From Candidatus Saganbacteria bacterium (lineage in GTDB: Bacteria; Margulisbacteria; WOR-1; JAKLHX01), in assembly GCA_026387835.1 (NCBI GenBank), contig JAPLKZ010000013.1, positions 9,369 through 73,368 on the forward strand: DNA of 64,000 bases, in the 5' to 3' direction. Of the stretch, positions 16,081 through 49,977 are shown piece by piece. Position 1 is the first letter of the stretch. Each line of letters begins with the position of its first letter. A program made the position numbers and the translations under genes. Below the pieces are notes generated by a model. It did not search any database, was not told the DNA's origin, and was given only the letters and a program-made list of their open reading frames with translations.

Positions 16081-17637
16081 ATGACCGAACTAAAAGGTGT
16101 GCTTTTACAAAGGAAAGTCCATGAACTTACAGCGTTGTATGAGATCAGCCAGGCGCTCGGGCTTACCCTTGACATGGAAAGATCCATGTATTCGATAATG
16201 GAGGTCCTGGATAAACATCTGGGCATGACGAGGGGAACGGTCACTCTCCTGCATTTGCATACGGGAGAGCTTTTTATCGAAGTCGCTCACGGTCTTACGG
16301 AATCGGAAAAGAAAAGAGGTATTTATAAGATCGGTGAAGGTATCACGGGAAAAGTAGTTGAGACCGGTGTGCCGGCAATCATCCCGAAAATAGGGGAAGA
16401 GCCGTTATTTTTGAATAAGACCAAAGCAAGAAAAAAAGATGTCGTTAAAAAGGACATCTCGTTCATCTGTGTCCCGATAAAGATCGGCAAGAACGTGATA
16501 GGAGCTTTTTCGGTCGACAAGATATTCAGCCCTGATATGCCGCTTGAAGAGGATGTCAGGTTTTTGACAATAGTCGCTTCGATGATCGCACAGTCGGTAA
16601 AGATACACCAGTTGATCCAGTCAGAAAAGGATAAATTGCTGGAGGAGAATATAAACCTGCGCGAGGAGTTGAAGCAGAAATACAGCTTCAAGAACATAAT
16701 CGGCAACAGCAGCAGGATGAGCGAGGTCTTCATGATGATAGGCCGTGTGGCAAAGAGCGACGCGACGGTCCTTATTAGAGGGGAATCCGGGACAGGTAAA
16801 GAGCTGGTCGCGCACGCCATACATTATAATAGTCTCCGTGCGAAAAGGCCCTTCATAAAGGTCAACTGCGCGGCGCTTCCCGAGAACCTGATAGAGGCAG
16901 AGCTTTTTGGATACGAAAGAGGAGCTTTTACAGGGGCGTTCGAAAGAAAGGCCGGAAGGTTCGAGCTGGCAGAGGGCGGGACGATCTTCCTTGATGAGAT
17001 AGGAGACCTCAGCCAGTCGACGCAGGTAAAACTTCTCCGGGTGATACAGGAAAGAGAGTTCGAACGTCTTGGCGGCACTGAAACGATAAAATGTAATGTC
17101 AGACTGATAACCGCGACCAACCAGAACCTGGAAAAACTGATAAGCGAACACAATTTCAGAGAAGACCTTTATTACAGATTGAACGTATTTCCGATATATA
17201 TCCCTCCTTTGCGTGAAAGAAAGGACGATATCCTGCTTCTTTCGGAATATTTCCTGGAAAAATATGCCAAGGAGAACAAGAAGAACATAAAAAGAATATC
17301 AACCCCGGCAATAGATGCGCTAATGAGTTATCACTGGCCCGGCAACGTTAGGGAACTTGAGAACTGTATCGAAAGAGCGGTACTTATGTGCGAGGGAGAG
17401 GTGATATATGCGCATCACCTGCCCCCGACGCTCCAGACGGCTACCGATACAAAGACAGAGATAAAGCAGTCGCTCGAAATTCTTGTTTCCGGCTTTGAAA
17501 AAGATATTATCGTGGATGCTTTAAAAACCATGCGCGGGAACATATCAAGATCAGCAAAGCTGCTTCAGACCACCGAAAGAATATTCGGCTATAAACTTAG
17601 CCAGTATGATATCGATTACAAAAAATACCGCGCCTAA
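16081..17637 (+). CDS. Sigma54-dependent transcriptional activator of NifA type (GAF-AAA+-Fis HTH) with no receiver domain
   Basis: N-terminal GAF domain, Walker [15 protein letters not shown] motif (ERGAFTGA), [10 protein letters not shown], and a C-terminal HTH. It sits at the head of the amtB-glnK-glnA-gltBD cluster. Confidence 0.85.
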
Positions 17638-17736
17638 TACCTCCAAAACTACAATAACGTAAAATATTCTGTAGGCATTCTACAAAATTGTTATCAGTTG
17701 CCGCGCTTTCCCTCTAATGTTCTCTTGATCTTCCCT

Positions 17737-17753
17737 CGGCAGGCAAATTGCTC
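17737..17753 (+). promoter_or_regulatory. Sigma54 (-24/-12) promoter candidate
   Basis: cGGCAGgcaaaTTGCT has GG-N10-GC spacing and matches the TGGCAC-N5-TTGCW consensus; it lies about 40 nt upstream of the ATG at 17791. Confidence 0.55.
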
Positions 17754-17790
17754 ATCTTTCTGTCAAACAGGCCGGAAAGGAGACGGAATC

Positions 17791-21141: not shown

Positions 21142-21161
21142 AAAAATAGGAGGTGTTTAAG

Positions 21162-21506
21162 ATGGGATTTAAAAAAATTGAGGCGATAATAAGGCCTGAA
21201 AAACTCGAAGATGTCAGGGTGGCACTTGAGGCTGCGGGGTTCATTGGCATGACAGTTACCGAAGTTAAAGGAAGAGGCAGTCAAAAGGGAGTCGTCCTCG
21301 AATGGAGGGCGGGAGAGTACAGGGTCGAGTTCCTCTCAAAATTGAAGATAGAGATCGTAGTGGACGAATTTGACTCGGAAAGGGCGGTAAAAGCGATAGA
21401 AGAAGCGGCCAGGACGGGGAAAACAGGGGATGGCAAGATATTTTCATACGCGGTAGATAACATAGTCCGGGTCAGGACCGGGGAAAGGGGGAACAAAGCT
21501 CTGTAA
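21162..21506 (+). CDS. glnK: PII nitrogen regulatory protein
   Basis: Contains TVTEVKGRGSQKG...EY (T-loop) and TGKTGDGKIF. RBS AGGAGG 9 nt upstream; immediately downstream of amtB. Confidence 0.9.
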   Translation: MGFKKIEAIIRPEKLEDVRVALEAAGFIGMTVTEVKGRGSQKGVVLEWRAGEYRVEFLSKLKIEIVVDEFDSERAVKAIEEAARTGKTGDGKIFSYAVDNIVRVRTGERGNKAL

Positions 21507-21555: not shown

Positions 21556-22890
21556 ATGACGAGCAAAGAAGAGATATTAAAACAGGTTAAAGATAACAAT
21601 ATTGAATTTATTAGATTATGGTTCACTGATATCAACGGTATCCTTAAAAGTTTCGCGATCGGACCAGATGAACTCGAGGGTGCGCTGACGCAGGGAATGG
21701 GCTTTGATGGATCGTCAATAACAGGGTTCCAGGACATCGAGGAATCAGACATGATAGCGATGCCGGACACGGAGACATTCGCTATTCTTCCATGGAGACC
21801 GCAGGAAACCCCGGTTGCAAGGATGATCTGTGATATCTTCCAGCCTGCAGCCGGCAAGCACAAACCTTACGAAGGTGATCCGCGGTTTATTTTAAAAAGG
21901 GCATTGGAGAAGATGAATAAAATGGGTTTCGATCATTTTTATGTGGGACCCGAGCTCGAATATTTTTATTTCAAAAACTCCGAAGGTACCGAGATCCTGG
22001 ACCAGGGCGGATATTTTGATCTTACTCCGCTTGATATGGCATCTGACCTGAGGCGTGATACCATCAAAGCGCTGAGAAGGCTTGGCGTGGTAATAGAATA
22101 TTCCCACCATGAGGTCGCTCCTTCACAGCATGAGATAGATATGAGATATGCCGACGCGCTGAAGATGGCGGACAATACGGTCACATACAAGCTGACCGTA
22201 AAAGAGATCGCATCAATGCATGGAGTATACGCTACTTTCATGCCGAAACCGATCTTCGGGCAGAACGGGAGCGGCATGCATGTCCACCAGTCGCTGTTCA
22301 AGGGAAAATCAAATGCCTTTTATGATGCAAATGACAAGTACAATCTGTCAGATATAGCAAAATCATATATCGCCGGCATCTTGAAACACGCGCCTGAAAT
22401 GATATCGATACTTGCTCCGGGGGTGAATTCATATAAAAGACTGGTGCCAGGGTTTGAAGCTCCTGTGTATATCGCCTGGTCAAGGCGCAACAGGTCGGCT
22501 CTTGTCAGGGTTCCCATGTACCAGCCGGGCAAAGAAGTGGCGACCAGGATGGAATTGAGATGTCCTGATCCATCGGGAAACCCATACCTTCAATTCGCGG
22601 TCATGTTACAGGCCGGCTTAAAAGGGATCCAAGAAGGTTATAAACTTCCTGAGCCGATGGAACTTAACCTGTATCATCTGAGCGATGAAGAAAGGGCGGA
22701 GCGCGGAATAAAATCTCTTCCTGCAAGCCTCGGCGAAGCCATCGCAATAACGGAAAAGAGCGAGCTTGTCAAAGAAGCTCTTGGCAAACACACATTTGAA
22801 AGATTCATAACTGTAAAAAAACAGGAATGGGATGATTTCAGGATCCAGGTCACGGAGTATGAAATAAAGAGGTATTTGCCGATATTATAA
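21556..22890 (+). CDS. glnA: Glutamine synthetase, type I (about 444 aa form)
   Basis: Gln-synt N and C domains with signatures (…FDGSSI…, …NGSGMHVHQS…). RBS AGGAGG. Confidence 0.95.
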   Translation: MTSKEEILKQVKDNNIEFIRLWFTDINGILKSFAIGPDELEGALTQGMGFDGSSITGFQDIEESDMIAMPDTETFAILPWRPQETPVARMICDIFQPAAGKHKPYEGDPRFILKRALEKMNKMGFDHFYVGPELEYFYFKNSEGTEILDQGGYFDLTPLDMASDLRRDTIKALRRLGVVIEYSHHEVAPSQHEIDMRYADALKMADNTVTYKLTVKEIASMHGVYATFMPKPIFGQNGSGMHVHQSLFKGKSNAFYDANDKYNLSDIAKSYIAGILKHAPEMISILAPGVNSYKRLVPGFEAPVYIAWSRRNRSALVRVPMYQPGKEVATRMELRCPDPSGNPYLQFAVMLQAGLKGIQEGYKLPEPMELNLYHLSDEERAERGIKSLPASLGEAIAITEKSELVKEALGKHTFERFITVKKQEWDDFRIQVTEYEIKRYLPIL

Positions 22891-22899
22891 GTTAAAATA

Positions 22900-22931
22900 A
22901 GGCGGGGCGGCTGTCGTCCCGCCTATTTATT
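22900..22931 (+). terminator. Rho-independent terminator after glnA
   Basis: A GGCGGG…CCCGCC stem followed by ATTTATT. Confidence 0.55.
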
Positions 22932-22943
22932 CAGTATCGATGC

Positions 22944-23183
22944 GTGAAAAATAGGCAAAAGAACATGAAAATCGACGAAATAAAAAAAGACCTTAATGAG
23001 ATGTTCTTTATCGAATACAGGGGAAAAATATACAAAACTCTTGTGGAAGCGCTGGAAAAACAGATGTTTGAAGCGACGCTCGATTATACGAACGGGAACA
23101 AGCTCAAATCCGCGAGAGTTTTAGGGATAAACAGAAATACGCTTTCTGCAAAGCTGAAAAAGTTAGGGCTGTGGAGGATTTGA
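22944..23183 (+). CDS. Stand-alone Fis-family HTH DNA-binding protein
   Basis: 79 aa; the C-terminus LKSARVLGINRNTLSAKLKKLGLW matches the Fis/NtrC C-terminal HTH. Its stop TGA abuts the gltB ATG. Confidence 0.6.
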   Translation: MKNRQKNMKIDEIKKDLNEMFFIEYRGKIYKTLVEALEKQMFEATLDYTNGNKLKSARVLGINRNTLSAKLKKLGLWRI

Positions 23184-26100
23184 ATGCCATACCCCATTAA
23201 ACAAGCGGGACTTTATGACAGCTCTTTTGAGCATGACAGCTGCGGTGTCGGGTTTGTCTGCAATATCAAAGGGATAAAATCACACGAGATGATCGAAAAG
23301 GGCATCGAAGTCCTTGAAAGATTGAGCCACAGGGGCGCGGTAGGCGCGGACCCAAAGACAGGGGACGGTGCCGGCATACTGATCCAGCTGCCTTACGAAT
23401 ATTTCAAGGATGAGTTTGAAAAAGAGGGCAAAAAGATCCCGTCACACGAGAAGTTCGCTGCCGGGATAATATTTTTACCGGCCGGCAGTAACGACAGGTT
23501 ATTCTGCGAAGAAAATATCGAGAGGCTTCTAAAAGAACAATCTCTGGATTTTTTGGGTTTTAAAGAAGTTCCTGTTGATGATTCAGCAATAGGCCGTACC
23601 GCAAAAAAAACACAACCGGTCATAAAATATCTGTTTACCGGTGCCGGAAGGGGCACTGCAAGCAGGCAGCATTTCGAGGTAAAACTCTATATTGCAAGAA
23701 AAAAGATAGAGAATTTCATAAGGAACAGCGGGATCACACAAAAAGATTCTTTCTACATAGTCAGCCTTTCCTCGAAGACCATCTGCTACAAAGGACTCCT
23801 GATGCCTAAGCAGATAAAGGATTTCTTTCCGGAATTAAAAGACAAGAGGATAAAATCCTGCCTGGCGCTGGTCCATTCAAGATACAGCACAAATACGTTC
23901 CCGACCTGGGACCTTGCGCAGCCGTTCAGGTTCCTTGCTCATAACGGCGAGATAAATACTCTGCGCGGGAATATAAACTGGATGAACACCAGGGAAAAGT
24001 TGTTCGAAAGCAGGGTATTCGGAGATGATATTAAAGAAATACTGCCGGCGGTCGTCCCTGGCGGCAGCGATTCGGCGTCTTTTGACAATGTGTTTGAGCT
24101 TTTGGTCGTTGCGGGGAGGTCTCTTCCTCACGTGATGATGATGCTAATCCCGGCGGTCTGGCAAAAGAACGAACTTATAAAAAAAGAACACAGGGACTTT
24201 TATAAATACCATTCCTGCATGATGGAGCCGTGGGACGGGCCGGCCGCGATCTGTTTTACGGACGGGGAAATAATCGGAGGAATACTGGACCGTAACGGTC
24301 TCAGGCCCTGCAGGTATGTGATAACAAAAGATGACTTTGTTGTGATGGCTTCGGAAGTCGGAGTGCTTGATATTCCGGCTGATAGAGTTGTGGAAAAAGG
24401 AAAGCTTTCTCCCGGGAAAATGTTCCTTGTGGACACGGTCGCGGGAAAGATAATCGATGACAAAAAAATAAAGGATGAAATATCGTCAAGAAAGCCTTAC
24501 GGTAAATGGCTTGAAGAAAACCTGGTGCATTTGGATCAAATAAAAACTCCTTCAGATAACGGCAAAGAAAAAGCAACCGACCTGTTTAAACTCCAAAAAG
24601 CGGCAGGCTATACAAGGGAAGATCTTAAGTTCATTCTTAAGCCGATGATAGAAAAAGGTCAGGAGCCCATCGGCTCCATGGGGAATGACATCCCGTATGC
24701 GGTGCTTTCGGAAAGACCGCAGATGCTGTTCTCTTATTTCAAGCAGTTGTTCGCCCAGGTGACGAACCCCGCGATAGATCCGATCCGGGAAGAACTGGTC
24801 ATGTCCCTTGAAAGTGCAATCGGACCGCAGCAGAACCTCCTTTCAGAGGGGCATCTTCATTGCAGAAAGTTGAACGTGATAAACCCGATCCTGACCGATG
24901 AAGAGCTTAGAAAGATAAAAAGTATCGATGTGAACGGCCTGAAGTCAAAGACAATATCTTTGCTCTTTGATCCGGAAATAGCCGGCTCGTTCAAATCGGC
25001 GATAGACCGCGTCTGCAACGAAGCGTTGCAGGTAATAGACGAAGGCTATTCTTTGCTGATATTGAGCGATAAAGGGGTCAATAAAAAGAAAGCGGCAATA
25101 CCTTCTCTTCTTGCGATGGGTGCGGTGCAACACCATCTTATAAGGCAGGGAGCAAGATCAAAAGCTGCCATCATTATCGAAAGCATGGAGCCGAGGGAAG
25201 TGATGCATTTTGCTCTTCTGTTCGGCTTTGGCGCTGACTGTGTTAACCCATATCTGGCGTATGAGGTCGTCGATCAGATCGTAAACGAGGAAAAACTCGA
25301 TGTCACGCTTGAGAACGCAAAAAAGAACTTCATAAAAGCGATCGAAAAAGGAATATTGAAAGTCCTTTCAAAGATGGGGATATCTTTGCTTGACAGTTAC
25401 CGCGGGGCCCAGATATTTGAAGCGGTCGGTCTGGGCAGCGAGGTGATCTACAGATATTTTTTCGGTACCGTATCAAGGATAGGCGGCATAAACACGGATA
25501 TTATCGAAAAAGAAACAGTCATGCGGCACAATTCTGCTTTTGGACAGGAAACGGAGATGCAGATCCTTCCCTCGGGCGGCATCTACCAGTGGCGGCAGGA
25601 CGGGGAATTCCATTTGTTGAGTCCCGCGGCAATATGCAGCTTCCAGCAGGCTGTAAGGAATAATGATCCTGTAAAATACCGGGAGTTTGCCGATCTGGTA
25701 AACGACCAGAAAGGTCATCTTTGCACTTTAAGAAGCGCCCTGAAATTCAAAGAACAGGCTGCTGTAGCGATCAACGAAGTAGAGAGTGCGAGCGAGATCG
25801 TAAAAAGGTTTGTGACAGGCGCGATGAGCTATGGTTCCGTCAGCAAGGAAGTTCACGAAACGATAGCCATCGTGATGAACCGTCTCGGAGCAAGATCCAA
25901 CAGCGGTGAGGGTGGAGAGGACCCCGCAAGATTCAAACCGCTTGCCAACGGTGACAGCAAAAGGAGCGCGATAAAACAGGTCGCTTCGGGCAGGTTCGGG
26001 GTTACGAGCAATTATCTTGTGAACGCGGATGAACTTCAGATCAAAATAGCACAGGGAGCAAAACCCGGGGAGGGAGGCCAGCTTCCCGGACATAAAGTCA

Positions 26101-27695
26101 ATGCCGTTATCGCCAGGATACGGTATTCGGTCCCGGGGGTCACACTGATATCACCGCCTCCGCACCACGACATCTATTCAATAGAAGATCTGGCGCAGTT
26201 GATATTTGATCTTAAGAACGCAAATCCGGAGGCGAGGGTGAGCGTAAAACTTGTTTCAGAGACAGGAGTAGGGACGATCGCTGCCGGTGTCGCAAAAGGA
26301 CATGCCGATATGATACTCATCTCCGGCGGTGACGGCGGCACGGGTGCGTCACCTCTAAGTTCCATAAAGCATGCCGGGCTGCCGTGGGAACTCGGGCTGG
26401 CAGAAACGCATCAGACGCTGGTGCTTAACAATCTCAGGAGCAGAGTAAAGCTGCAGACTGACGGCCAACTGCGCACGGGGCGCGATATTGTAATGGCTGC
26501 GATACTCGGAGCTGACGAGTTTGGTTTTGCTACACCTGCCCTTATGACGATGGGATGCGTGATGCTTAGGCATTGTCATCTTAACAATTGTTCGGTAGGT
26601 ATAGCGACCCAGGATGAGGCCCTCAGAAAAAGGTTTGCGGGCAAACCGGAATATCTGGAGAACTATCTTAAGTTCGTTGCGGAAGAAGCAAGGGCGATAA
26701 TGGCGCAGCTTGGGGTCAGAAAGATCGACGAGCTTGTCGGAAGGACGGACCTCCTGGAGATCGACGAAAATCTGCTTAACTGGAAAAGCAAAAATATCGA
26801 CTATTCAAAGATCCTGTTCAAGCCGGACATGCAGATAAACGGGCCAAGGTTGCAGGACCACGGACTAAAAAATGTCATTGATAAAATACTCATAGAAAAA
26901 TGCGATACGGCGATAGAAAAAAGGCAAAATATTACTTTAGAAATGACGCTAAAAAATCACAACAGGACGGTGGGTACGATGCTCAGCTCCAGGATCTCAA
27001 AAAAATGGGGGGAAGAAGGTCTCCCCGATGACACTATAAGACTTAAATTCAAGGGGAGTTCAGGACAGAGCTTTGGGGCTTTTCTCGCAAAGGGGGTCAC
27101 GTTGGAGCTTGAGGGTGAATGCAATGATTATGTCGGCAAAGGACTTTCGGGCGGGAAGATCATCGTTTATCCTGACAGATCATCCAGGTTCGATGCCAAA
27201 GAAAATATCGTGATCGGCAACACGGCTTTTTACGGAGCCACGGGAGGAGATGCTTACATAAGAGGCATTGCTGGAGAAAGATTCTGTGTAAGGAATTCCG
27301 GTATTTATGCGGTAGTCGAAGGGATCGGGGACCACGGCTGTGAGTACATGACGGGCGGCCGCGTGGCGATACTCGGAAAGACGGGAAGGAATTTTGCCGC
27401 CGGGATGTCCGGCGGAATAGCTTATGTATATGATATCGACGGAAAATTCGCTCAAAGGTGCAATACAGCGATGGTAGAGCTCAGTATGCCGTCCGTCAGA
27501 GATGAATCGATCTTAATGTATCTTCTGGAAAACCATTACAAATATACCAGAAGTGATGTCGCGAAAAAGATCCTCGATAATTTTTCCGAGGAAATAAAAA
27601 GGATCATACGCGTCATACCGAAAGAATACAAATCCATACTTATAGCTGACGGCACTTATAAATATGAAGAAACACCGCCGGATCCGGAAGGGTAG
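23184..27695 (+). CDS. gltB: Glutamate synthase large subunit
   Basis: 1503 aa: N-terminal Ntn amidotransferase with Cys1 (MPYPIKQAGLYDSSFEHDSCGVGF), central, FMN/Fe-S and C-terminal GXGXG domains. Confidence 0.95.
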   Translation: MPYPIKQAGLYDSSFEHDSCGVGFVCNIKGIKSHEMIEKGIEVLERLSHRGAVGADPKTGDGAGILIQLPYEYFKDEFEKEGKKIPSHEKFAAGIIFLPAGSNDRLFCEENIERLLKEQSLDFLGFKEVPVDDSAIGRTAKKTQPVIKYLFTGAGRGTASRQHFEVKLYIARKKIENFIRNSGITQKDSFYIVSLSSKTICYKGLLMPKQIKDFFPELKDKRIKSCLALVHSRYSTNTFPTWDLAQPFRFLAHNGEINTLRGNINWMNTREKLFESRVFGDDIKEILPAVVPGGSDSASFDNVFELLVVAGRSLPHVMMMLIPAVWQKNELIKKEHRDFYKYHSCMMEPWDGPAAICFTDGEIIGGILDRNGLRPCRYVITKDDFVVMASEVGVLDIPADRVVEKGKLSPGKMFLVDTVAGKIIDDKKIKDEISSRKPYGKWLEENLVHLDQIKTPSDNGKEKATDLFKLQKAAGYTREDLKFILKPMIEKGQEPIGSMGNDIPYAVLSERPQMLFSYFKQLFAQVTNPAIDPIREELVMSLESAIGPQQNLLSEGHLHCRKLNVINPILTDEELRKIKSIDVNGLKSKTISLLFDPEIAGSFKSAIDRVCNEALQVIDEGYSLLILSDKGVNKKKAAIPSLLAMGAVQHHLIRQGARSKAAIIIESMEPREVMHFALLFGFGADCVNPYLAYEVVDQIVNEEKLDVTLENAKKNFIKAIEKGILKVLSKMGISLLDSYRGAQIFEAVGLGSEVIYRYFFGTVSRIGGINTDIIEKETVMRHNSAFGQETEMQILPSGGIYQWRQDGEFHLLSPAAICSFQQAVRNNDPVKYREFADLVNDQKGHLCTLRSALKFKEQAAVAINEVESASEIVKRFVTGAMSYGSVSKEVHETIAIVMNRLGARSNSGEGGEDPARFKPLANGDSKRSAIKQVASGRFGVTSNYLVNADELQIKIAQGAKPGEGGQLPGHKVNAVIARIRYSVPGVTLISPPPHHDIYSIEDLAQLIFDLKNANPEARVSVKLVSETGVGTIAAGVAKGHADMILISGGDGGTGASPLSSIKHAGLPWELGLAETHQTLVLNNLRSRVKLQTDGQLRTGRDIVMAAILGADEFGFATPALMTMGCVMLRHCHLNNCSVGIATQDEALRKRFAGKPEYLENYLKFVAEEARAIMAQLGVRKIDELVGRTDLLEIDENLLNWKSKNIDYSKILFKPDMQINGPRLQDHGLKNVIDKILIEKCDTAIEKRQNITLEMTLKNHNRTVGTMLSSRISKKWGEEGLPDDTIRLKFKGSSGQSFGAFLAKGVTLELEGECNDYVGKGLSGGKIIVYPDRSSRFDAKENIVIGNTAFYGATGGDAYIRGIAGERFCVRNSGIYAVVEGIGDHGCEYMTGGRVAILGKTGRNFAAGMSGGIAYVYDIDGKFAQRCNTAMVELSMPSVRDESILMYLLENHYKYTRSDVAKKILDNFSEEIKRIIRVIPKEYKSILIADGTYKYEETPPDPEG

Positions 27696-27707: not shown

Positions 27708-29138
27708 ATGGGAGACCCCAAAGGTTTTTTAACGACAAAAAGGGAGAGCTGTTCTTTGCGGAGCGTGAAAGAGCGGGTTTCCGACTATAAAGAGGTCTTT
27801 CAGATGCGTGAAAGCGATTGCTCAAGATCTCAGGCTTCACGCTGCATGGACTGCGGGACGCCTTTTTGCCACGTATCCTGCCCGATATCAAACATAATTC
27901 CCGAGTGGAACGATCTTTTGTTCCGCGGGATGTCGGAAGAAGCATTCAAAATGCTTTCGGCTACTAACTGTCTGCCGGAAGTCACGGGCAGGGTATGCCC
28001 TGCGCCTTGTGAATACGGATGCGTACTCGGGATAAACGACGACCCCGTCACTATACGCGAGAACGAGCTGGCGATAATAGAAGAAGCTTTTTCAAACGGG
28101 ATAATAAAGGCAGATCCTCCAAAGAAAAGAACAGGGAAGAAAGTTGCTGTCATAGGTTCCGGCCCGTCCGGACTTTCAGCCGCTTATCATCTGAACAAGT
28201 CCGGCCACACAGTTGTCGTCTTTGAGAGAGATGATAAGGCCGGAGGTATCATGAGATACGGAATTCCCGACTTCAAGCTATCAAAAGATATCCTGGACAG
28301 GAGGATCGGACTTTTTAAACAGGAAGGCATAGAGTTCAGGACAAATATAAATATAGGCGAGGACATCCCGGCGGCAAAACTGCTGAAAGAGTTTGATGCG
28401 GTATGCCTTGCCTGCGGGTCAAGGACTCCGCGGGACCTTAATGTCGAAGGAAGAGACCTCAAAAGCATATGTTTTGCGATGGATTATCTTATACAATCCA
28501 ATAAAAAAGTCGAAGGTCATAGTATCGATGAAAAAGGAATTATCGATGCAAAAGGTAAGAATGTTATCGTTATCGGCGGCGGAGATACCGGTTCAGACTG
28601 TGTGGGAACAGCCAACAGGCAGGGCGCAAAAAGCGTGGTACAGATAGAACTTCTCCAAAAGCCGCTTCAGTGCAGGCTTGACAGCCAGCCGTGGCCGCAG
28701 TACCCGACATTATTAAAAACCACCTCGAGCCATGAAGAGGGATGCGAAAGGCAGTGGAGCGTCATGACAAAAAAATTATCAGGCAGCAACGGCATTGTCA
28801 AAAAGCTCCATGCCATGCTTGTTGATTTTTCGAATACCGATCAAAAGGGATGCAGAATAATGCAGGAAGTCCCAGGTTCGGATTTTGAAATAGATGCGGA
28901 TATGGTCATTTTGGCCCTCGGGTTTCTCCATACTGAAAAGGGGAAACTGCTGGACGAGCTCGGTATCGAATTTGATCCTAGAGGTAACGTGAAGACAGAC
29001 GCGGATAATATGACCTCCGTTAAAGGAATCTTTTCTGCGGGAGATATGAGGAGGGGGCAGTCGCTCGTTGTCTGGGCGATCGATGAAGGGAGAAGGGCCG
29101 CTGAAAGCATCAATTCTTTTCTAAAGGATAGAAAATGA
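27708..29138 (+). CDS. gltD: Glutamate synthase small subunit (NADPH)
   Basis: 476 aa with Fe-S Cys clusters and two Rossmann GxGxxG motifs (VAVIGSGPSG, VIVIGGGDTG). Confidence 0.9.
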   Translation: MGDPKGFLTTKRESCSLRSVKERVSDYKEVFQMRESDCSRSQASRCMDCGTPFCHVSCPISNIIPEWNDLLFRGMSEEAFKMLSATNCLPEVTGRVCPAPCEYGCVLGINDDPVTIRENELAIIEEAFSNGIIKADPPKKRTGKKVAVIGSGPSGLSAAYHLNKSGHTVVVFERDDKAGGIMRYGIPDFKLSKDILDRRIGLFKQEGIEFRTNINIGEDIPAAKLLKEFDAVCLACGSRTPRDLNVEGRDLKSICFAMDYLIQSNKKVEGHSIDEKGIIDAKGKNVIVIGGGDTGSDCVGTANRQGAKSVVQIELLQKPLQCRLDSQPWPQYPTLLKTTSSHEEGCERQWSVMTKKLSGSNGIVKKLHAMLVDFSNTDQKGCRIMQEVPGSDFEIDADMVILALGFLHTEKGKLLDELGIEFDPRGNVKTDADNMTSVKGIFSAGDMRRGQSLVVWAIDEGRRAAESINSFLKDRK

Positions 29139-31687
29139 AGACACTGACGGCGCATACAGGTCTTGACGGTTTGGATGCGGTCCTTAACGGACTGCTGATA
29201 GGGGACAATGTGGTCTGGCAGGTCGACGATGTTTCGGACTATAAAAAATTCGTTCTTCCTTTCGTAAAAAGAGCCCTCACCGATAAAAAGAAAGTCGTCT
29301 ATATAAGGTTTGCCGATCATCCGCCGCTGCTCGAAAATACCGAAAAGATAACCGTCTACAAGATAGATCCTGAAAGCGGTTTTGAATCCTTCTCAACCCA
29401 GATACACAACATTGCCACAAAAGAAGGCGAAGGGACGTATTATGTCTTCGACTGCCTGTCCGATCTCCTTTCTTCATGGGCAACGGACCTCATGATCGGA
29501 AATTTCTTTCTTGTGACCTGCCCCTACCTTTACGAACTTGATACGATAGCGTACTTCAGCGTCCTGAGGAACAGCCTTTCTTTCGAGACGATAGCGCGCA
29601 TAAGGGAGACCACCCAGCTTTTGCTGGACCTTTTCAATATCAGGAACACGTATTATGTCCACCCGTTAAAAGTGTTCAACCGTTATTCCCCGACAATGTA
29701 TCTTCCGCACATCCAAAAAGGAGAAAAATTCATCCCCATCGTAAGCAGTGCAGATGCGGCGAACATATTTTCAGGAATATATAAAAAGGGCCCGGAAAGT
29801 GAAAAGAGAAAACTTGATTTCTGGGACAGGCTTTTTATCAGGGCGCAGGAATTATTCGAGAAAAAAGGCCCGAAAGAAGAACAGGAAAAGATGATCGACC
29901 AGCTTTGCAGGGTGATGATAGGCAAAGAAGAAAAGATGCTTGCTCTTGCAAAAAAGCATCTGGCGATCGACGACATTTTAAGTATCAAATCAAGGATGAT
30001 AGGAACAGGATTTATCGGAGGCAAATCGGTCGGGATGCTGCTATCCAGAAGGATCCTTTTAAGCGATCCCTCGTGCGACTGGAGGTCCCAGCTTGAGCCG
30101 CACGATTCATTTTATGTGGGTTCCGATGTCTTTTATACATATATTGTCCAGAACGGCTGGTGGCGGCTTCTCATGGAACAGAAGACACAGGGGAAATATT
30201 TTGAGGCCGCGCAGGAACTTTCGGAAAAACTGCTCAAGGGGAGGTTCCCCCAGGAGATCAAGGAACAGTTCCAGGAGATGCTGGAATATTTTGGCCAGGC
30301 CCCGATAATCGTCAGGTCGTCGAGCCTGCTGGAAGACGGGTTCGGCAATGTTTTTGCCGGAAAATACGAAAGTATCTTTTGTGCCAACCAGGGGAGTCCC
30401 GAAGAACGTTATAAGAACTTTGAAAGCTCGGTAAAAAGGATATTTTCAAGCACGATGAACAAGGACGCGCTTTTCTACAGGATGCAGAAAGGTTTGACAG
30501 AACAGGAAGAACAGATGGCGCTCCTTGTGCAAAGGGTGTCAGGCTCGACAAAGAAACATTATTTCTTCCCGGACACCGCAGGGGTGGGCATCTCTCACAA
30601 TATATTCATCTGGAACAAGGATATGGACCCGAAAGCGGGAATGCTGAGACTGGTTTTCGGCCTGGGGACCAGGGCGGTCAACAGGGTTGAAGATGATTAT
30701 CCGAGGATAGTAGCGCTCGACGACCCCTTGTCGAGGCCGATAGCCGGCATAGAGGAGGCAAGAAAATACTCGCAGCACAAGATAGACCTTCTTGATATCT
30801 CAAAGAATTCACTTGAAACCCTTGAAATATCCGATGTGCTTTCGGAAGGGATAGATTTTGACATGGGGCTAATCGCGGAGCATGACGGTACTACGAACGG
30901 ATCGTGGATATTGTCTTTTGATCCTTTTCTCAGGACAACGGAGTTTGCCGGTACAATGCAAAAGATGATGAAATTCCTTGAAGCCCAGTATAAGCATCCG
31001 GTAGATATAGAATTCACGGCAAATTTCACGAAAGACCGCGGTCTACAGATAAACCTTCTTCAATGCAGGCCTTTGCAGGCAAAAAGCGGGGAGGTGAAGA
31101 TAGATATTCCGGAAGATATTGATAAATCCATGAAAGTCTTTTCTTCGGAGGGCGGTTTCATGGGCGGCAGCATATCAAGGTCTTTGAGAAGGCTTATATA
31201 TGTAGATGCAAAGCTGTACAGCGAGCTTACACAGTCTGCAAGATACGATATTGCCCGCGCGATCGGGAAACTGAACCACCTGATAAACGCAAAGGAAGAA
31301 CTTCCGACGATCATAATAGGGCCGGGACGATGGGGGACGACGACCCCTTCGATGGGAATACCCGTCAGTTTTTCAGAGATCAACAACGCAAGCTGCCTGG
31401 TCGAGGTGTCTTTCAGGACAGCGAACCTTATCCCGGAGGTGTCTTTCGGGACCCATTTTTTCCAGGACCTGGTAGAGGGCGATATCTTTTACTCCGCCCT
31501 GTTCACTGAAAATAAAGATGTTTTGTTGAATTCGGACCTGGTCATGTCTTTTTCAAACAAGCTTTCCGGATTGCTGCCTGAATACGGGAAATATCAGGAC
31601 GTCATCAGGGTCTGTGATTTTGAGGATAATAAACTGATGCTGGCAGCGGATGTCATTTCACAGAAGGTCGTCTGTTTTATAAAATAA
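29135..31687 (+). CDS. Pseudo-KaiC/RecA-like N-domain fused to a PEP-utilising-enzyme nucleotide-binding (PPDK_N, ATP-grasp) domain
   Basis: 850 aa. The N-terminus HTGLDGLDAVLNGLLIGDNVVW resembles the KaiC/RadA lead-in but has no Walker A. Residues about 300-650 carry PPDK_N hallmarks (IGTGFIGGKSVGM; IIVRSSSLLEDGFGNVFAGKYES). No phospho-His swivel or PEP/pyruvate TIM domain is present. ATGA overlap with the gltD stop. Confidence 0.6.
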   Translation: MKTLTAHTGLDGLDAVLNGLLIGDNVVWQVDDVSDYKKFVLPFVKRALTDKKKVVYIRFADHPPLLENTEKITVYKIDPESGFESFSTQIHNIATKEGEGTYYVFDCLSDLLSSWATDLMIGNFFLVTCPYLYELDTIAYFSVLRNSLSFETIARIRETTQLLLDLFNIRNTYYVHPLKVFNRYSPTMYLPHIQKGEKFIPIVSSADAANIFSGIYKKGPESEKRKLDFWDRLFIRAQELFEKKGPKEEQEKMIDQLCRVMIGKEEKMLALAKKHLAIDDILSIKSRMIGTGFIGGKSVGMLLSRRILLSDPSCDWRSQLEPHDSFYVGSDVFYTYIVQNGWWRLLMEQKTQGKYFEAAQELSEKLLKGRFPQEIKEQFQEMLEYFGQAPIIVRSSSLLEDGFGNVFAGKYESIFCANQGSPEERYKNFESSVKRIFSSTMNKDALFYRMQKGLTEQEEQMALLVQRVSGSTKKHYFFPDTAGVGISHNIFIWNKDMDPKAGMLRLVFGLGTRAVNRVEDDYPRIVALDDPLSRPIAGIEEARKYSQHKIDLLDISKNSLETLEISDVLSEGIDFDMGLIAEHDGTTNGSWILSFDPFLRTTEFAGTMQKMMKFLEAQYKHPVDIEFTANFTKDRGLQINLLQCRPLQAKSGEVKIDIPEDIDKSMKVFSSEGGFMGGSISRSLRRLIYVDAKLYSELTQSARYDIARAIGKLNHLINAKEELPTIIIGPGRWGTTTPSMGIPVSFSEINNASCLVEVSFRTANLIPEVSFGTHFFQDLVEGDIFYSALFTENKDVLLNSDLVMSFSNKLSGLLPEYGKYQDVIRVCDFEDNKLMLAADVISQKVVCFIK

Positions 31688-31762: not shown

Positions 31763-31834
31763 GGGCCCATAGCTCAATGGTGGAGCAATCGGCTCATAAC
31801 CGACAGGTTCTAGGTTCGAATCCTAGTGGGCCCA
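31763..31834 (+). tRNA. tRNA with CAU anticodon (tRNA-Met elongator; tRNA-Ile2/lysidine cannot be excluded)
   Basis: A cloverleaf folds by hand: acceptor GGGCCCA/TGGGCCC, D-stem GCTC/GAGC, anticodon loop CTCATAA, T-arm CTAGG-TTCGAAT-CCTAG. 72 nt, no encoded CCA. Confidence 0.85.
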
Positions 31835-31843
31835 TCTATTATT

Positions 31844-32509
31844 ATGAATATCCCCATCTTATATGAAGACGAGCAGATCATTGCTGTCGATAAACCTCCG
31901 CGCGTTTCGACGATCCCTAATACTTCCACACCCAGGGAAGAATCACTTGTAGGCATGCTTGAGGAACGGTTTGAAAGGAAGTTTTTTGTAGTCCACCGGC
32001 TGGATAAGGATACTTCCGGTGTAATTGTCTTTGCTTTGGATCCAGCTACGCATAGGGACTTGAATATCCAGTTTGAACAGCAGAAAGTAGAAAAAAAATA
32101 TATCGGTATTGTGGAAGGCAAAACGGATTTTGTTGAAAAGAAAATTTCGATCCCAATCTCAAAAAGCAAGATCGGATCAAAAAAGGTCGCTCTTTCAAGC
32201 AAGGGGTTCGAGGCGATAACTATCGTAAAGACATTAAAAAATCTAAAAGGTTATTCAATAGTTGAAATACGGCCTGTGACAGGCAAAAGGCACCAGATAA
32301 GGCTTCATCTGAAAGCTATCGGTCACCCGCTCGCGATAGACGAGCTTTACGGCAGGAAAGAACCCATCATTATAAACGGGAAGATCGTTTTAGACAGAAT
32401 GCCTTTGCACGCGTCTGAAATATCGTTCGTCCATCCGGGCAGACAGGAAAAGATCACCATCAGCTCGGAAATTCCTCAGGATATGAACGGTTTTATAAGT
32501 TCGCTTTAA
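31844..32509 (+). CDS. RluA-family pseudouridine synthase
   Basis: Contains HRLDKDTSGVIVFA (catalytic Asp motif) and GKRHQIRLHL. The start is taken at the internal ATG 9 nt after the tRNA, because the longer ORF would overlap the tRNA. Confidence 0.8.
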   Translation: MNIPILYEDEQIIAVDKPPRVSTIPNTSTPREESLVGMLEERFERKFFVVHRLDKDTSGVIVFALDPATHRDLNIQFEQQKVEKKYIGIVEGKTDFVEKKISIPISKSKIGSKKVALSSKGFEAITIVKTLKNLKGYSIVEIRPVTGKRHQIRLHLKAIGHPLAIDELYGRKEPIIINGKIVLDRMPLHASEISFVHPGRQEKITISSEIPQDMNGFISSL

Positions 32510-47205: not shown

Positions 47206-49977
47206 CTATTTTGATTTATATGCTCTGCTGGACTTTTCTTTCAACACCGCCTGTGCAGCCGCGAGTCTCGCGATAGGCACCCTGAAAGGAGAACAACTTA
47301 CATAGTTAAGCCCGATATTATGGCAGAATTCAACAGATGCGGGATCTCCGCCGTGCTCTCCGCAGATGCCGATCTTCAGGTCCGCCCTTGCGGACCTGCC
47401 TTTTAAAACGCCCATCTTGACGAGCTCTCCTACGCCGCTCTGATCGAGAGTTACGAACGGGTCAACATTTATGATCTTCTTCTCGATATACTCCGGAAGG
47501 AACGAGCCGATGTCGTCCCTGCTGAAACCGAAGCTCATCTGCGTAAGGTCATTGGTCCCGAAAGAGAAGAAATGGGCCGATTTTGCGATCTTATCCGCCA
47601 CAAGAGCGGCTCTCGGGATCTCTATCATCGTTCCGACAGTATAAGGGATATTCACTTTGTATTTAGCTTTTACCTCTTCATAGATCCTCTTTATCACAAC
47701 GATCTGGTCATCGATCTCTCTTACCATGGCTACGACCGGCACCATAATTTCCGGATGCGCCTTTTTCCCCGTCTTAATAAGTTCCGCCGCGGATTCGAAT
47801 ATCGCCCTGGCTTCGATCTCCGTTATTTCCGGGTAGGTGATGCCGAGCCTGACCCCGCGGTGGCCCATCATCGGATTGCTTTCTCTGAGCACGCTTGCCC
47901 GTTTTTCAAGCTCTTCCATGCTGATGTTCAGTGCTTTTGCAAGTTCTTCGAGCTTTGCTGCTTCATGCGGGACGAATTCGTGGAGCGGCGGGTCGATCAG
48001 CCTGATCGTCACGGGCAGGCCGTTCATCGCCTCAAGAGTCGCCTTGATATCCGACTTCATGTAAGGATAAAGCTCTTTCAGGGCTTCCTTTCTTTCGCTC
48101 TCCGTCTTTGAAAGGATCATCTTTCTCAGGATGAAAAGCGGCTTTTCGGTCCCTTCACCGTAGAACATATGTTCTATCCTGAAAAGCCCGATGCCCTCGG
48201 CCCCGAACTGTCTTGCTTTTTTTGCGTCAGCAGGAGTATCGGCGTTGGTCCTTACTTTCAATCTTCTGATCCCGTCGCACAAGACAAGGAATGAATCCAA
48301 AAGACTGGATTCTTCGGTCGCATCTATCATCGGCAGTTTGCCGGCATATACATTTCCCTTGGTGCCGTTAAGAGTGATCCAGTCGCCTTCTTTCAGGGTC
48401 ATTCCGCTGACCGAGATCGTTTTTTTCTGATGATCGATATCCAAAGCGCTGCAGCCGACGATACAGCATTTTCCCCAGCCTCTTGCTACCAATGCGGCGT
48501 GAGAGGTCATCCCGCCTCTTGCAGTCAGGATCGCTTCTGCCGCTCTCATTCCTTCGACGTCCTCGGGATTGGTCTCTTCTCTGACCAGGATCACCTTGCT
48601 GCCTTTCTTCGCCCATTCGACGGCATCGTTCGCGCTGAAGACGATCACTCCTGCCGCGCCGCCGGGGCCCGCGGGCAGTCCTTTTGCGACAGGTTTGTTC
48701 GTCTTTTCGGCGGCAGGATCCACTATAGGATGCAGAAGCTCGTCAAGCTGGGCCGGGGTCACCCTTAAAACAGCCTCTTCCTTTGTTATAAGTTTTTCTT
48801 TTACCATATCGACGGCCATCTTCACTGCCGCGGGGCCGTTCCTTTTTCCGATTCGGCATTGCAGCATGAAAAGGGTCCCTTTTTCTATGGTGAACTCAAT
48901 ATCCTGCATATCCCTATAATGTTTTTCAAGCCTTTTCTGGATATCAAACAGTTCTTTGTAGATCCCGGGCATCGCTTTTTCGAGCGTTAAAAGATCTTTG
49001 TTATGTTCGCTCTGGCTCACTGTGTTGATAGGGGCGGGGGTCCTGGTCCCCGCGACTACATCCTCTCCCTGCGCGTTGATAAGATATTCTCCGTAGAAGT
49101 GCGCGTCTCCGTTGCCGGGGTTCCTTGTAAATGCGACGCCTGTCGCGCAGTCGCTGCCCATGTTGCCGAAAACCATTGTCTGGACACTGACGGCCGTTCC
49201 CCATTCATCGGGGATATTCTCGATCTTCCTGTAGGAGATCGCTCTTTTACCGTTCCATGAAGAAAATACCGCTCCTACGCCTCCCCAGAGCTGTTCCATG
49301 TGGTCGTCAGGAAATTCTTTTCCGAGAACCTCCTTGACTTTTTTCTTGAAAGATTCGCAGAGCTTTTTCAGGTCTTCCGCGGTCAAATCGGTATCGCTCT
49401 TGTAGCCGTTCTGGTTTTTGACCTTCCCCATCATGTGGTCCAGCTGTTTCCTGATACCCATATCGTCTTTAGGCTCGATGCCCGCCGCCTTTTCCATCAC
49501 TACATCGCTATACATCATTATCAGCCTTCTGTAAGCGTCGTAAACGAACCTTTCGTTCCCGCCGGTCTGTTTGATAAGTCCCGGTATCGTCTTTGAAGTA
49601 AGCCCGACGTTAAGGACCGTCTCCATCATCCCCGGCATCGAACTCCTCGCGCCGGAGCGGACGGATACGAGCAGCGGATTTTGCGGATCACCGAATTTCT
49701 TTCCCATTATCTTTTCGATCTTTTCGACCGCGGTCTTTACCTGCGCTTCCAGTTTTTTAGGATATTTTTTGCGGTTCTCGTAATAATACGTGCAGACATC
49801 GGTCGTTATCGTGAAACCGGGAGGGACAGGAAGTTTAAGTTTAGGATGCCCCGCCATTTCGGCGAGGTTCGCTCCTTTTCCTCCCAGGAGGTTCTTCATC
49901 TTTTCATGGCCGTCAGCACGCCCTCCTCCGAAGAAGTAAACGAACTTTTTGGACCCGGACTTTTTTTTAGCAGCCAT
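47206..49977 (-). CDS. ppdK: Pyruvate, phosphate dikinase
   Basis: 923 aa with all three domains: N-terminal ATP-grasp, central swivel with the phospho-His (TARGGMTSHAALVARG), and a C-terminal PEP/pyruvate TIM barrel. Confidence 0.9.
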   Translation of the reverse strand: MAAKKKSGSKKFVYFFGGGRADGHEKMKNLLGGKGANLAEMAGHPKLKLPVPPGFTITTDVCTYYYENRKKYPKKLEAQVKTAVEKIEKIMGKKFGDPQNPLLVSVRSGARSSMPGMMETVLNVGLTSKTIPGLIKQTGGNERFVYDAYRRLIMMYSDVVMEKAAGIEPKDDMGIRKQLDHMMGKVKNQNGYKSDTDLTAEDLKKLCESFKKKVKEVLGKEFPDDHMEQLWGGVGAVFSSWNGKRAISYRKIENIPDEWGTAVSVQTMVFGNMGSDCATGVAFTRNPGNGDAHFYGEYLINAQGEDVVAGTRTPAPINTVSQSEHNKDLLTLEKAMPGIYKELFDIQKRLEKHYRDMQDIEFTIEKGTLFMLQCRIGKRNGPAAVKMAVDMVKEKLITKEEAVLRVTPAQLDELLHPIVDPAAEKTNKPVAKGLPAGPGGAAGVIVFSANDAVEWAKKGSKVILVREETNPEDVEGMRAAEAILTARGGMTSHAALVARGWGKCCIVGCSALDIDHQKKTISVSGMTLKEGDWITLNGTKGNVYAGKLPMIDATEESSLLDSFLVLCDGIRRLKVRTNADTPADAKKARQFGAEGIGLFRIEHMFYGEGTEKPLFILRKMILSKTESERKEALKELYPYMKSDIKATLEAMNGLPVTIRLIDPPLHEFVPHEAAKLEELAKALNISMEELEKRASVLRESNPMMGHRGVRLGITYPEITEIEARAIFESAAELIKTGKKAHPEIMVPVVAMVREIDDQIVVIKRIYEEVKAKYKVNIPYTVGTMIEIPRAALVADKIAKSAHFFSFGTNDLTQMSFGFSRDDIGSFLPEYIEKKIINVDPFVTLDQSGVGELVKMGVLKGRSARADLKIGICGEHGGDPASVEFCHNIGLNYVSCSPFRVPIARLAAAQAVLKEKSSRAYKSK

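Follow-up and report, generated by a model that had tools for sequence, protein, structure and literature searches.

A putative regulatory ATP-grasp enzyme encoded beside glutamate-forming enzymes in many anaerobic phyla

In the textbook cases of post-translational control of nitrogen assimilation, GlnE acts on glutamine synthetase and GlnD acts on PII, both as nucleotidyltransferases that alter their targets covalently. To our knowledge, most bacteria have no known regulator dedicated to GDH or GOGAT, and the choice that anaerobes make between the ATP-free GDH and the ATP-costly GS-GOGAT is, so far as we are aware, poorly understood. The PknG-GarA/OdhI switch of the Actinobacteria is a kinase-driven regulator of GDH, GOGAT, and 2-oxoglutarate dehydrogenase. 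NifL, a nucleotide-binding and kinase-derived protein, is an anti-activator encoded beside the GAF-sigma54 activator NifA.

The protein family described here contains a PPDK_N-type ATP-grasp domain. The nearest His-dependent dikinases built on this domain are PEP synthase, PPDK, rifampin phosphotransferase (RPH), and the two-component phenol/hydroxyphenylethanone kinases PpsAB/HpeHI, and the characterised PPDK_N enzymes that lack a TIM barrel are all small-molecule dikinases (RPH, 5hv1/5hv6; HpeI, 9goj; PMC12167813). Clustered at 90% identity, the family forms more than 8,000 groups. Its constant core is the ATP-grasp domain together with a dedicated 196-aa C-domain, for which there were 1,914 representatives at 50% identity. 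The family is misnamed in databases as 'PEP synthase' or 'PEP/pyruvate-binding protein'. Full-text literature searching on its domains and nitrogen partners found no account of it, and neither the genome paper on G. bemidjiensis nor that on the sigma54 regulome of D. vulgaris mentioned PEP synthase, dikinase, GDH, or GOGAT.

Operon and nitrogen cluster

The member studied here, a protein of 850 aa, is encoded in a 64,000-nucleotide stretch of Candidatus Saganbacteria DNA (the window), which has the following features around the gene.

16081..17637, + strand: GAF-sigma54 activator-HTH_8 enhancer-binding protein (EBP), heading the nitrogen cluster
18492-19712, + strand: amt, nitrogen cluster
19921-21141, + strand: second amt, nitrogen cluster
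21153-21506, + strand: PII, nitrogen cluster
21556-22890, + strand: glnA, nitrogen cluster
22900..22924, + strand: terminator-like hairpin 3' of glnA (11 pairs, 8 GC)
22965..23183, + strand: stand-alone Fis-family HTH protein, 72 aa (HTH_8, E 2.7e-12)
23184..27695, + strand: gltB, GOGAT large subunit
27708..29138, + strand: gltD, GOGAT small subunit
29135..31687, + strand: gene for the 850-aa protein (KaiC-like / ATP-grasp / C-domain), final CDS of the gltB-gltD unit
31763..31834, + strand: tRNA-Met, directly 3' of the 850-aa protein gene, bounding the protein-coding unit at its 3' end

The stop codon of gltD overlaps the start codon of the 850-aa protein gene, as the preliminary description of this DNA had claimed, and the same junction was short (-6 to +14 bp) at 9 of the 11 other loci with GltD. 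As read from the sequence, the gene is co-translated with gltD and closes a fis-like/gltB/gltD unit. The fis-like gene is probably the first of this unit, because its stop abuts the gltB ATG, and the hairpin stands between the unit and glnA. That description had also placed the gene in a nitrogen cluster controlled by sigma54 and PII. The EBP, two amt genes, PII, and glnA are all present, but matches to a sigma54 promoter (-24/-12; TGGCAC-N5-TTGCW) did not exceed the chance level, and there were none in 22925-23183, upstream of the gltB unit. Apart from the tRNA-Met, no riboswitch or other structured RNA was found around the operon.

Domains of the 850-aa protein

The protein was divided into three domains and a linker, and Pfam models are absent for two of the three domains.

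29135..29779, + strand: N-domain, aa 1-215, RecA/KaiC fold without Walker A
29780..30013, + strand: helical linker, aa 216-293, kept in variants without the N-domain
30014..31096, + strand: PPDK_N-type ATP-grasp, aa 294-654
31097..31687, + strand: C-domain, aa 655-850, and stop codon; a new domain with the motifs GPGRWGT (729-735) and S-F-G-T-H-F-F-Q-D-L-V-E (770-781)
31454..31456, + strand: codon of His774, candidate phospho-acceptor

The ATP-grasp assignment made earlier by eye was borne out by the Pfam scan (PF01326, E 2.9e-49, residues 294-661), and the domain is homologous to the ATP domain of RPH. Every nucleotide- and Mg-binding residue and every catalytic residue was invariant across about nine phyla (K297, R394, E400, D401, K410, R467, R505, E626, Q643, and R645). 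The same scan gave no match in the 850-aa protein to the mobile phospho-His domain PF00391, with its GGxT(S/C)HAA motif, or to the PEP-utilizers_C TIM barrel PF02896, and the chain ends 196 aa past the ATP-grasp. As the preliminary description had held, the protein is therefore not a complete dikinase, and the complete ppdK expected elsewhere in the window was confirmed at 47206..49977, where it includes PF02896. Neither an NTase (Pol-beta-type) catalytic domain nor a helical substrate-binding domain homologous to the RIF-binding domain was found in the 850-aa protein.

The C-domain was always paired with the ATP-grasp. Its core, G-R...E...S-x-G-(T/S)-H, was strictly conserved, and the residues R732, E757, S770, and H774 were invariant even among the representatives at 50% identity. 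His774, at the N-terminus of a helix (C-domain residues 119-127), was conserved in 78 of 78 family members and in 148 of 149 divergent representatives. The canonical phospho-His motif was not present in the family. No match of the C-domain to the phospho-His swivel domain was found when 39 members were scanned with Pfam at E ≤ 10 or when PDB sequences were searched with a profile, an hhalign comparison with a swivel profile drawn from PPDK only, the one source of swivel domains in the loci, was negative, and Foldseek found no significant match in the PDB. The swivel domain of RPH-type dikinases carries T/S-x-x-G-G-x-x-x-H and a catalytic His, a part for which His774 is a candidate.

The N-domain had been described as KaiC/RecA-like and lacking a Walker A motif. 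A RecA-like alpha/beta core fold is present, and none of 78 N-domains had the P-loop G-x4-G-K-[ST]; its position is occupied by Q-V-D31-x-I-x-D35-Y36, while a Walker-B-like Y-V-F-D106 was invariant. The Pfam KaiC model (PF06745) had no match in the N-domain even at E ≤ 10. The sole sequence tie to the KaiC family was transitive: the N-domain HMM matched a protein from another locus (L064; E 4.6e-24), relatives of which match PF06745/PF05625. The domain was found alone in an HTH-cupin regulator, adjoining a Glu_synthase gene. Nearest to the N-domain among known proteins are KaiC, SSO2452, PH0284, and FlaH/ArlH, which are KaiC-like members of the RecA superfamily, and Elp4/5/6 and the BcsE N-domain, which are degenerate RecA-fold pseudo-ATPases. 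Unlike the KaiC-like proteins, the family has acidic D31 and D35 at the P-loop position, lacks Walker A in all 78 members, and has the N-domain fused to an ATP-grasp enzyme or a DNA-binding domain. These features indicate that the N-domain probably serves in ligand binding, docking, or oligomerisation and not as an NTPase.

Genomic linkage and variants of the family

The family showed pervasive genomic linkage to the enzymes that form glutamate from 2-oxoglutarate (GOGAT, GDH) and to their regulators (GAF-sigma54 EBP, NrpR, PII/Amt). Core nitrogen-assimilation genes were found at 51 of 71 loci in about nine phyla, well over chance and independent of gene order, which strongly supports a nitrogen link that had been offered as speculation. 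Carrier lineages include Omnitrophota, Planctomycetota, Desulfobacterota, Spirochaetota, Bacillota, and Margulisiibacteriota/Saganbacteria, and Anaerobacillus sp. MEB173, Desulfuromonas, and Syntrophus are cultured carriers. The immediate neighbour was GDH (20 loci), GltD (10), a GAF-sigma54 activator (9), or NrpR (6). The nine activators, all at loci other than the window, are EBPs of the same type as the window's, and the gap to the family gene was -4 to +5 bp in 7 of 7 cases. The glutamine-amidotransferase genes pyrG, carB, and guaA were recurrent near family loci. Being encoded beside glutamate-forming enzymes and nitrogen regulators in many anaerobic phyla, the family probably takes an unrecognised part in nitrogen assimilation.

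Six distant architectural variants were sampled, and in every one the gene directly follows GDH. Three of the six, and two more proteins from a domain scan, had an NTase domain (P0226, P0230, P0233, P0248, and P0145); in several variants it is an intact Pol-beta-type PF01909 at the C-terminus. In two sampled loci a metallophosphoesterase adjoined the variant gene. The alternative N-terminal modules X190 and X345 had no Pfam match. Single-linkage clustering had pointed to a further 43 copies of the family in the loci, but on inspection these were proteins that had been chained in, such as sigma54 activators and histidine kinases. A true divergent paralogue was found only in L046; the receiver-like N-terminus read by eye in this paralogue was given no support by Pfam.

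Proposed function and likeness to known systems

Our best reading is that the 850-aa protein is an enzyme, driven by ATP and probably phosphorylated on His, that acts on the step from 2-oxoglutarate to glutamate as a regulator or modifier. The ATP-grasp would use ATP to phosphorylate His774 by dikinase chemistry (ATP -> AMP + Pi + His~P), the C-domain would be a divergent swivel-type carrier, and either the phosphoryl group or the conformation it brings about would be handed on to a recipient at the node where glutamate is formed. The recipient would most plausibly be a protein, whether GDH, one of the GOGAT subunits, or the transcription regulator encoded alongside, and the outcome may be an adjusted division of flux between GDH, which spends no ATP, and the ATP-costly GS-GOGAT. 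The N-domain, swappable or missing in variants, would be an accessory module for input, docking, or oligomerisation. We put the probability of this whole explanation at about 0.5. An energy sensor or (phospho)transfer regulator of GOGAT or its regulators had been suggested before, and this interpretation is supported in part.

The reading of the protein as a divergent or degenerate PEP synthase/PPDK, a central-carbon enzyme or decayed paralogue placed after gltD by accident, follows the NCBI label of the window gene ('phosphoenolpyruvate synthase'). It is effectively refuted: matches to the NCBIfam PEP synthase models exist but are weak (15-50 bits against cut-offs of 456-1350, more than 400 bits short), the TIM barrel and PF00391 are missing, a complete ppdK is already in the window, and both the nitrogen linkage and the strong purifying selection over the whole length of the family (mean column identity 71%) argue against it. 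A small-molecule dikinase, converting ATP to AMP and Pi while phosphorylating a compound that belongs, or is related, to the glutamate/2-oxoglutarate node and is bound in the C-domain and/or N-domain, has the precedent of RPH and HpeHI, and would account for the invariant catalytic residues, the co-transcription with enzyme genes (gltD, GDH), and the recurrence of pyrG, carB, and guaA; R732, E757, S770, and H774 could form its substrate site. We nevertheless consider such a metabolic partner of GDH/GOGAT unlikely. The family has no domain like the RIF- or phenol-binding domains, and because variants swap or lose the N-terminal module and still keep their linkage to GDH, the acceptor site would have to be in the small C-domain. 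The frequent tight coupling to EBP and NrpR and the fusion to an NTase of protein-modifying type suit regulation better, and we know of no pathway that needs a phosphorylated glutamate or 2-oxoglutarate derivative made by AMP-forming chemistry.

Regulation could also be exerted by contact, with no phosphotransfer, if the protein were a non-catalytic or slow-cycling sensor like NifL that bound adenine nucleotide in the ATP-grasp and a nitrogen/carbon signal in the KaiC-like pocket, and so controlled the GAF-sigma54 activator, NrpR, or GDH/GOGAT. The directly abutting EBPs, the six adjoining NrpR genes, and the absence of the canonical phospho-His motif are consistent with this. So is the N-domain, a pseudo-ATPase like the scaffolds Elp4/5/6 and BcsE that is found again in a transcription factor. 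However, invariance of the ATP-grasp and C-domain core is typical of catalysis rather than binding alone, and variants accompany GDH without a nearby regulator, which makes such an anti-activator quite doubtful.

Returning to the phospho-His enzyme, its persistent attachment to GDH, GOGAT, NrpR, and the GAF-sigma54 activator makes the family a concrete candidate for the missing control layer. It would give the dikinase superfamily a new type of output and put a degenerate KaiC-like domain to a new use; should the function turn out to be metabolic, thousands of gene annotations would still need correction. More tentatively, the family may be the catalytic part of a covalent-modification system that acts reversibly on GDH and/or GOGAT, or on their dedicated regulators, in many anaerobic phyla, with the KaiC-like domain as sensor of nitrogen/carbon status, an NTase added in some lineages, and the adjacent metallophosphoesterase in two sampled loci.

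Among known systems, the tight placement of the family gene beside a GAF-sigma54 EBP recalls that of nifL beside nifA, but there is no homology to NifL, the catalytic residues are intact, and the linkage reaches contexts with NrpR or GDH only. The PknG-GarA/OdhI switch may be a conceptual precedent, as a phosphorylation system that splits 2-oxoglutarate among glutamate-forming enzymes, although its proteins (a Hanks kinase and an FHA protein) are wholly unrelated and any control of GDH or GOGAT activity by the present family is putative. The likeness to GlnE and GlnD would be one of functional analogy, as large multidomain enzymes of the nitrogen regulon that reversibly modify assimilation proteins, and several superfamily variants carry the C-terminal PF01909 NTase. 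The window protein differs from them in having no NTase, in its unrelated sequence, in its proposed His-mediated phosphotransfer, and in its partners, which are GDH and GOGAT rather than glutamine synthetase or PII. If the proposed covalent-modification system is real, it would be the counterpart for GDH/GOGAT of GlnE for glutamine synthetase.

The target gene and its nitrogen cluster

The target gene (29135-31687, + strand) is a genuine ORF encoding a product of 850 aa, 100% identical to an NCBI 'phosphoenolpyruvate synthase' entry from a Candidatus Saganbacteria MAG. The preliminary description had placed it behind gltBD in a nitrogen cluster, and this setting was recovered: a GAF-sigma54 activator (EBP), two amt genes, PII, glnA and gltBD all lie upstream on the + strand, and the target ATG overlaps the TGA of gltD, directly 5' (aaaATGAag). 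An AAGGA motif lies 9 nt 5' of this ATG.

Features of the nitrogen cluster in the window
16081-17637, +, GAF-sigma54 activator with HTH
17698-18477, +, 259-aa ORF between the activator and amt, no Pfam match
18492-19712, +, amt
19921-21141, +, amt
21153-21506, +, PII
21556-22890, +, glnA
22900-22924, +, terminator-like hairpin
22965-23183, +, 72-aa stand-alone HTH protein of the Fis family (HTH_8, E 2.7e-12)
23184-27695, +, gltB, glutamate synthase (GOGAT) large subunit
27708-29138, +, gltD, glutamate synthase small subunit
29135-31687, +, target
31763-31834, +, tRNA-Met (anticodon CAT)

The 72-aa protein is encoded in the apparent glnA-gltB intergenic region, and its TGA directly adjoins the ATG of gltB. 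The protein resembles an NtrC-type activator reduced to its detached DNA-binding domain, and its gene probably opens the gltBD-target unit. The target is the final coding sequence of this unit, because the tRNA-Met starts 76 nt past its stop. That tRNA also overlaps the GTG listed for the RluA-type pseudouridine synthase ORF at 31826-32509, so the true start of that ORF is probably further 3'. No sigma54 -24/-12 consensus stood out 5' of gltB, no riboswitch was found around the operon, and no glutamate dehydrogenase (GDH) gene was found within the window. Homologs of the 259-aa ORF are placed identically in the nitrogen clusters of a Margulisiibacteriota locus (L040) and an Omnitrophota locus (L047), and it may therefore be a further uncharacterized component of such clusters.

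Elsewhere in the window, the ppdK previously noted at 47206-49977 has PPDK_N, PEP-utilizers and PEP-utilizers_C domains and is genuine, but it lies on the minus strand, not on the plus strand that its coordinates had implied. A 903-aa ORF (33180-35891, +) had zero Pfam matches and no match to the N-domain, ATP-grasp or C-domain HMMs of the target, and is thus unrelated to its family. A second sigma54-activator-like region (53971-54813, +) shares 27% identity with the AAA+ portion of the cluster EBP.

Domain anatomy and conservation

PPDK_N (PF01326; residues 294-661, E 2.9e-49) was the sole Pfam domain of the target, with neither the PEP-utilizers mobile domain nor the PEP-utilizers_C TIM barrel found by Pfam. 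NCBIfam gave only partial matches (PEP synthase, rifampin phosphotransferase (RPH) and PigC models), hundreds of bits under the cut-offs. The motifs originally cited were located at residues 7-28, 289-301 and 391-413. An alignment of 78 family members showed that Walker A is absent from every N-domain; Q-V-D31-x-I-x-D35-Y36 occupies the P-loop position, and the Walker-B-like Y-V-F-D106 does not vary. Ten ATP-grasp residues (K297, R394, E400, D401, K410, R467, R505, E626, Q643 and R645), which are the nucleotide- and Mg-binding positions of dikinases, were invariant in 78/78. Together the Pfam result, the missing P-loop and these residues uphold the initial reading of a pseudo-KaiC domain joined to PPDK_N with no TIM barrel. 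An AlphaFold2 model built with 26 homologs had pLDDT 77.6 and pTM 0.73, with 85-94 over the first 200 residues.

Residues 655-850, the C-domain, are conserved to the same degree as the remainder of the protein and carry the motifs GPGRWGT (729-735) and S-F-G-(T/S)-H-F-F-Q-D-L-V-E (770-781). Modeled in isolation, the C-domain had pLDDT 89.7 and pTM 0.89, and the model placed His774 at a helix N-terminus. When 1.84 billion representatives were searched exhaustively with a profile, 1,914 proteins were found to bear this domain. Among the best 150, which are far more divergent than the 80 homologous loci considered below, a strict core was retained: G731 (148/148), R732 (147/148), E757 (150/150), S770 (146/150), G772 (145/149), T/S773 (142/149) and H774 (148/149). 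A PPDK_N ATP-grasp immediately precedes the C-domain in every representative of at least 550 aa and in all 10 Pfam-scanned proteins.

Three results count against membership of the C-domain in the swivel (mobile phospho-His) domains: hhalign against the PPDK swivel profile gave <1% probability, Foldseek gave no significant match (best E 0.026, TM 0.22), and the canonical swivel motif T/S-x-x-G-G-x-x-x-H (GGxT[S/C]HAA), as given in a study of the two-component dikinase HpeHI (PMC12167813), is absent. Given these comparisons, its conservation and its obligate position after PPDK_N, the C-domain is regarded as a new domain obligately paired with the ATP-grasp. The preliminary description had excluded a phospho-His domain; the Pfam mobile domain and canonical motif are indeed absent, but a highly divergent phospho-His carrier in the C-domain is plausible though unproven, which leaves that claim established neither way.

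Linkage to glutamate synthesis across genomes

A scan of GTDB species genomes yielded 80 loci (49-63% identity) from Omnitrophota, Planctomycetota, Spirochaetota, Bacillota, Margulisiibacteriota, Aegiribacteria, Elusimicrobia, Binatia and Desulfobacterota-type lineages (Syntrophales, Syntrophorhabdus, Desulfuromonas, Desulfobulbus and Geobacteraceae). Neighboring ORFs were clustered without bias and cluster representatives were searched with Pfam. The recurrent neighbors were nitrogen-assimilation genes: GOGAT at 36 loci, GDH at 30, Amt at 16, PII at 15, GS at 14, GMP synthase at 10, NrpR and CTP synthase at 9 each, and carbamoyl-phosphate synthase at 7. The proposed co-occurrence with gltBD was therefore seen, within a broader pattern. 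After relabeling, a core nitrogen gene was present at 51 of the 71 loci whose flanks reached at least 3 kb. The figure is conservative: L064 had been scored negative, yet genes for a Glu_synthase-domain protein and a GAF-ANTAR regulator lie within it at a distance of 2 kb.

The immediate neighbor at these 71 loci was GDH in 20, GltD in 10, the GAF-sigma54 activator in 9 and NrpR in 6; GDH, GltB or GltD accounted for 31/71 against ~0.2 expected under a crude null, which is only indicative as the loci are non-independent. Gaps were -6 to +14 bp from GltD in 9/11 loci, -4 to +5 bp from EBP in 7/7, and 95-289 bp from GDH. Gene order varied. Omnitrophota and Planctomycetia have gltB-gltD-target(-pyrG); Phycisphaerae and Pirellulales combine EBP-target with an amt-PII-GS-gltB arm that runs divergently; in Syntrophales the target is accompanied by NrpR and GDH; and Desulfuromonadales, Spirochaetota and Bacillota show the order GDH-target or target-GDH. 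In Margulisiibacteriota, the lineage closest to the window's organism, the target heads the same nitrogen cluster (GDH<, NrpR>, target, EBP, amt, PII, GS, gltB, gltD at two loci). Persistence of the linkage through such rearrangement argues that selection maintains it. pyrG, carB and guaA also recur next to the target or the gltBD-target unit (L020, L026, L028, L035, L036, L038, L039, L042, L047, L049 and L069), which suggests a wider glutamine/glutamate-utilization neighborhood and not a GOGAT-only link.

Architectures around the constant core, [helical linker]-ATP-grasp-C-domain
845-900 aa, KaiC-like N-domain + core (the target's own class), 31 representatives
608-666 aa, core by itself, 6 representatives
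767-778 aa, ~190-aa module + core, 3 representatives
919-920 aa, ~345-aa module + core, 2 representatives
1052-1077 aa, ~345-aa module + core + C-terminal Pol-beta nucleotidyltransferase (NTase, PF01909), 4 representatives
1484-1654 aa, tandem duplications, 4 representatives (two run ~170 aa beyond the last C-domain)

With modules varied or absent on a constant core, the N-terminal module looks like an exchangeable accessory; neither the ~190-aa nor the ~345-aa module matched Pfam. Tandem duplications and two-gene forms point to the core working as a dimer. A Geobacter sp. OR-1 protein is [core]+[KaiC-like+core], with the His motif retained in both copies. The C-terminal NTase occurs in core variants P0226, P0230 (with a canonical G-S-x10-D-I-D-L motif), P0233, P0248 and P0145, a scanned tandem form in which it lies in the extension after the last C-domain. 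A divergent Leptospiraceae paralog (L046:1-2253, +, frame 0), with ATP-grasp, C-domain and an uncharacterized N-terminus, sits just 5' of GDH and a canonical member of the family. GPGRWG and S-x-G-S-H-F-F are retained in this paralog, with D778 replaced by N and E781 by L.

The N-domain and the core each carry the glutamate-synthesis linkage (INDEPENDENTLY). All six non-KaiC representatives examined lie directly 3' of GDH on the same strand: P0234 and P0145 immediately after it, P0269 with a start overlapping the GDH stop, P0127 in the order NrpR-GDH-GDH-P0127, P0230 after GDH and a 583-aa core protein, and P0226 after GDH and a 973-aa PPDK_N protein, with Metallophos and GltD-like genes next in line.

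The isolated N-domain had zero Pfam matches even at E≤10, and its HMM matched (E 4.6e-24) a protein of 441 aa at L064 in which this P-loop-less KaiC-like domain is followed by an XRE-type HTH and a cupin. About 1,455 relatives share the architecture, chiefly in Desulfobulbales; some of them, named 'KaiC/GvpD/RAD55 family RecA-like ATPase' by JGI, have precomputed Pfam KaiC (PF06745) and PAXNEB/Elp4 (PF05625) matches. These matches and names give a transitive bridge, at the sequence level, that supports the putative fold of the N-domain. At L064, and likewise in Desulfopila inferna and Desulfobulbus propionicus DSM 2032, its gene converges on genes for a GAF-ANTAR regulator and for a 545-aa protein with a Glu_synthase domain only. 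This makes the protein a candidate regulator of that glutamate-synthase-like gene; the other surrounding genes differ. Members lie at L064:17383-18708 (-), L090:9001-10311 and L092:9001-10332.

Proposed function and alternatives

A functional reading can start from what was observed: how the target is built and conserved, the obligate pairing of ATP-grasp with C-domain, and the genomic linkage to the conversion of 2-oxoglutarate to glutamate and to the regulators of this step. In RPH and HpeHI, the ATP-grasp charges a His of a mobile domain, and this domain then delivers the phosphate elsewhere (PMC12167813). By analogy, the ATP-grasp of the target would phosphorylate His774, and either the phosphoryl group or the state so produced would act at the glutamate-forming node, with the N-domain as a possible sensor, docking or ring-forming module. 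Rather than an N-domain ligand, the acceptor would more likely be a neighboring gene product (GDH, GltD/GltB, EBP or NrpR), as the linkage outlives loss or exchange of the N-module and neighbor clustering of the 80 loci found no further conserved partner gene. We put the probability at 0.5 that the target is an enzyme, driven by ATP and likely His-phosphorylated, with a regulatory or modifying role in glutamate formation.

A small-molecule dikinase is an appreciably weaker candidate, with the intact nucleotide site in its favor and the exchange of N-modules against it. Slightly further down the scale is a non-catalytic NifL-like sensor, favored by the P-loop-less N-domain and disfavored by the invariant ATP-grasp residues. 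Databases name the family 'PEP synthase' or 'PEP/pyruvate-binding domain-containing protein', but an ordinary or decayed PEP synthase is highly improbable, as the TIM barrel is missing and the NCBIfam scores fall far short of the cut-offs.

No Pfam or NCBIfam model exists for the family or for either its N-domain or C-domain, and a full-text search of open-access papers found no description of the family or of a GDH/GOGAT-linked PPDK_N protein, though subscription journals may hold one. The dedicated control of GDH and GOGAT that the family implies would, if true, be new. Two NTase loci (L081:8001-12031 and L084:6001-10055) have a second core protein 5' and a convergent metallophosphoesterase gene 3', a possible writer/eraser pair downstream of GDH. 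The family itself is built from known folds and is therefore placed in the dikinase superfamily, and its NTase fusions and the convergent Metallophos genes of L081 and L084, though few cases, are consistent with a writer and eraser acting in the manner of GlnE and GlnD.
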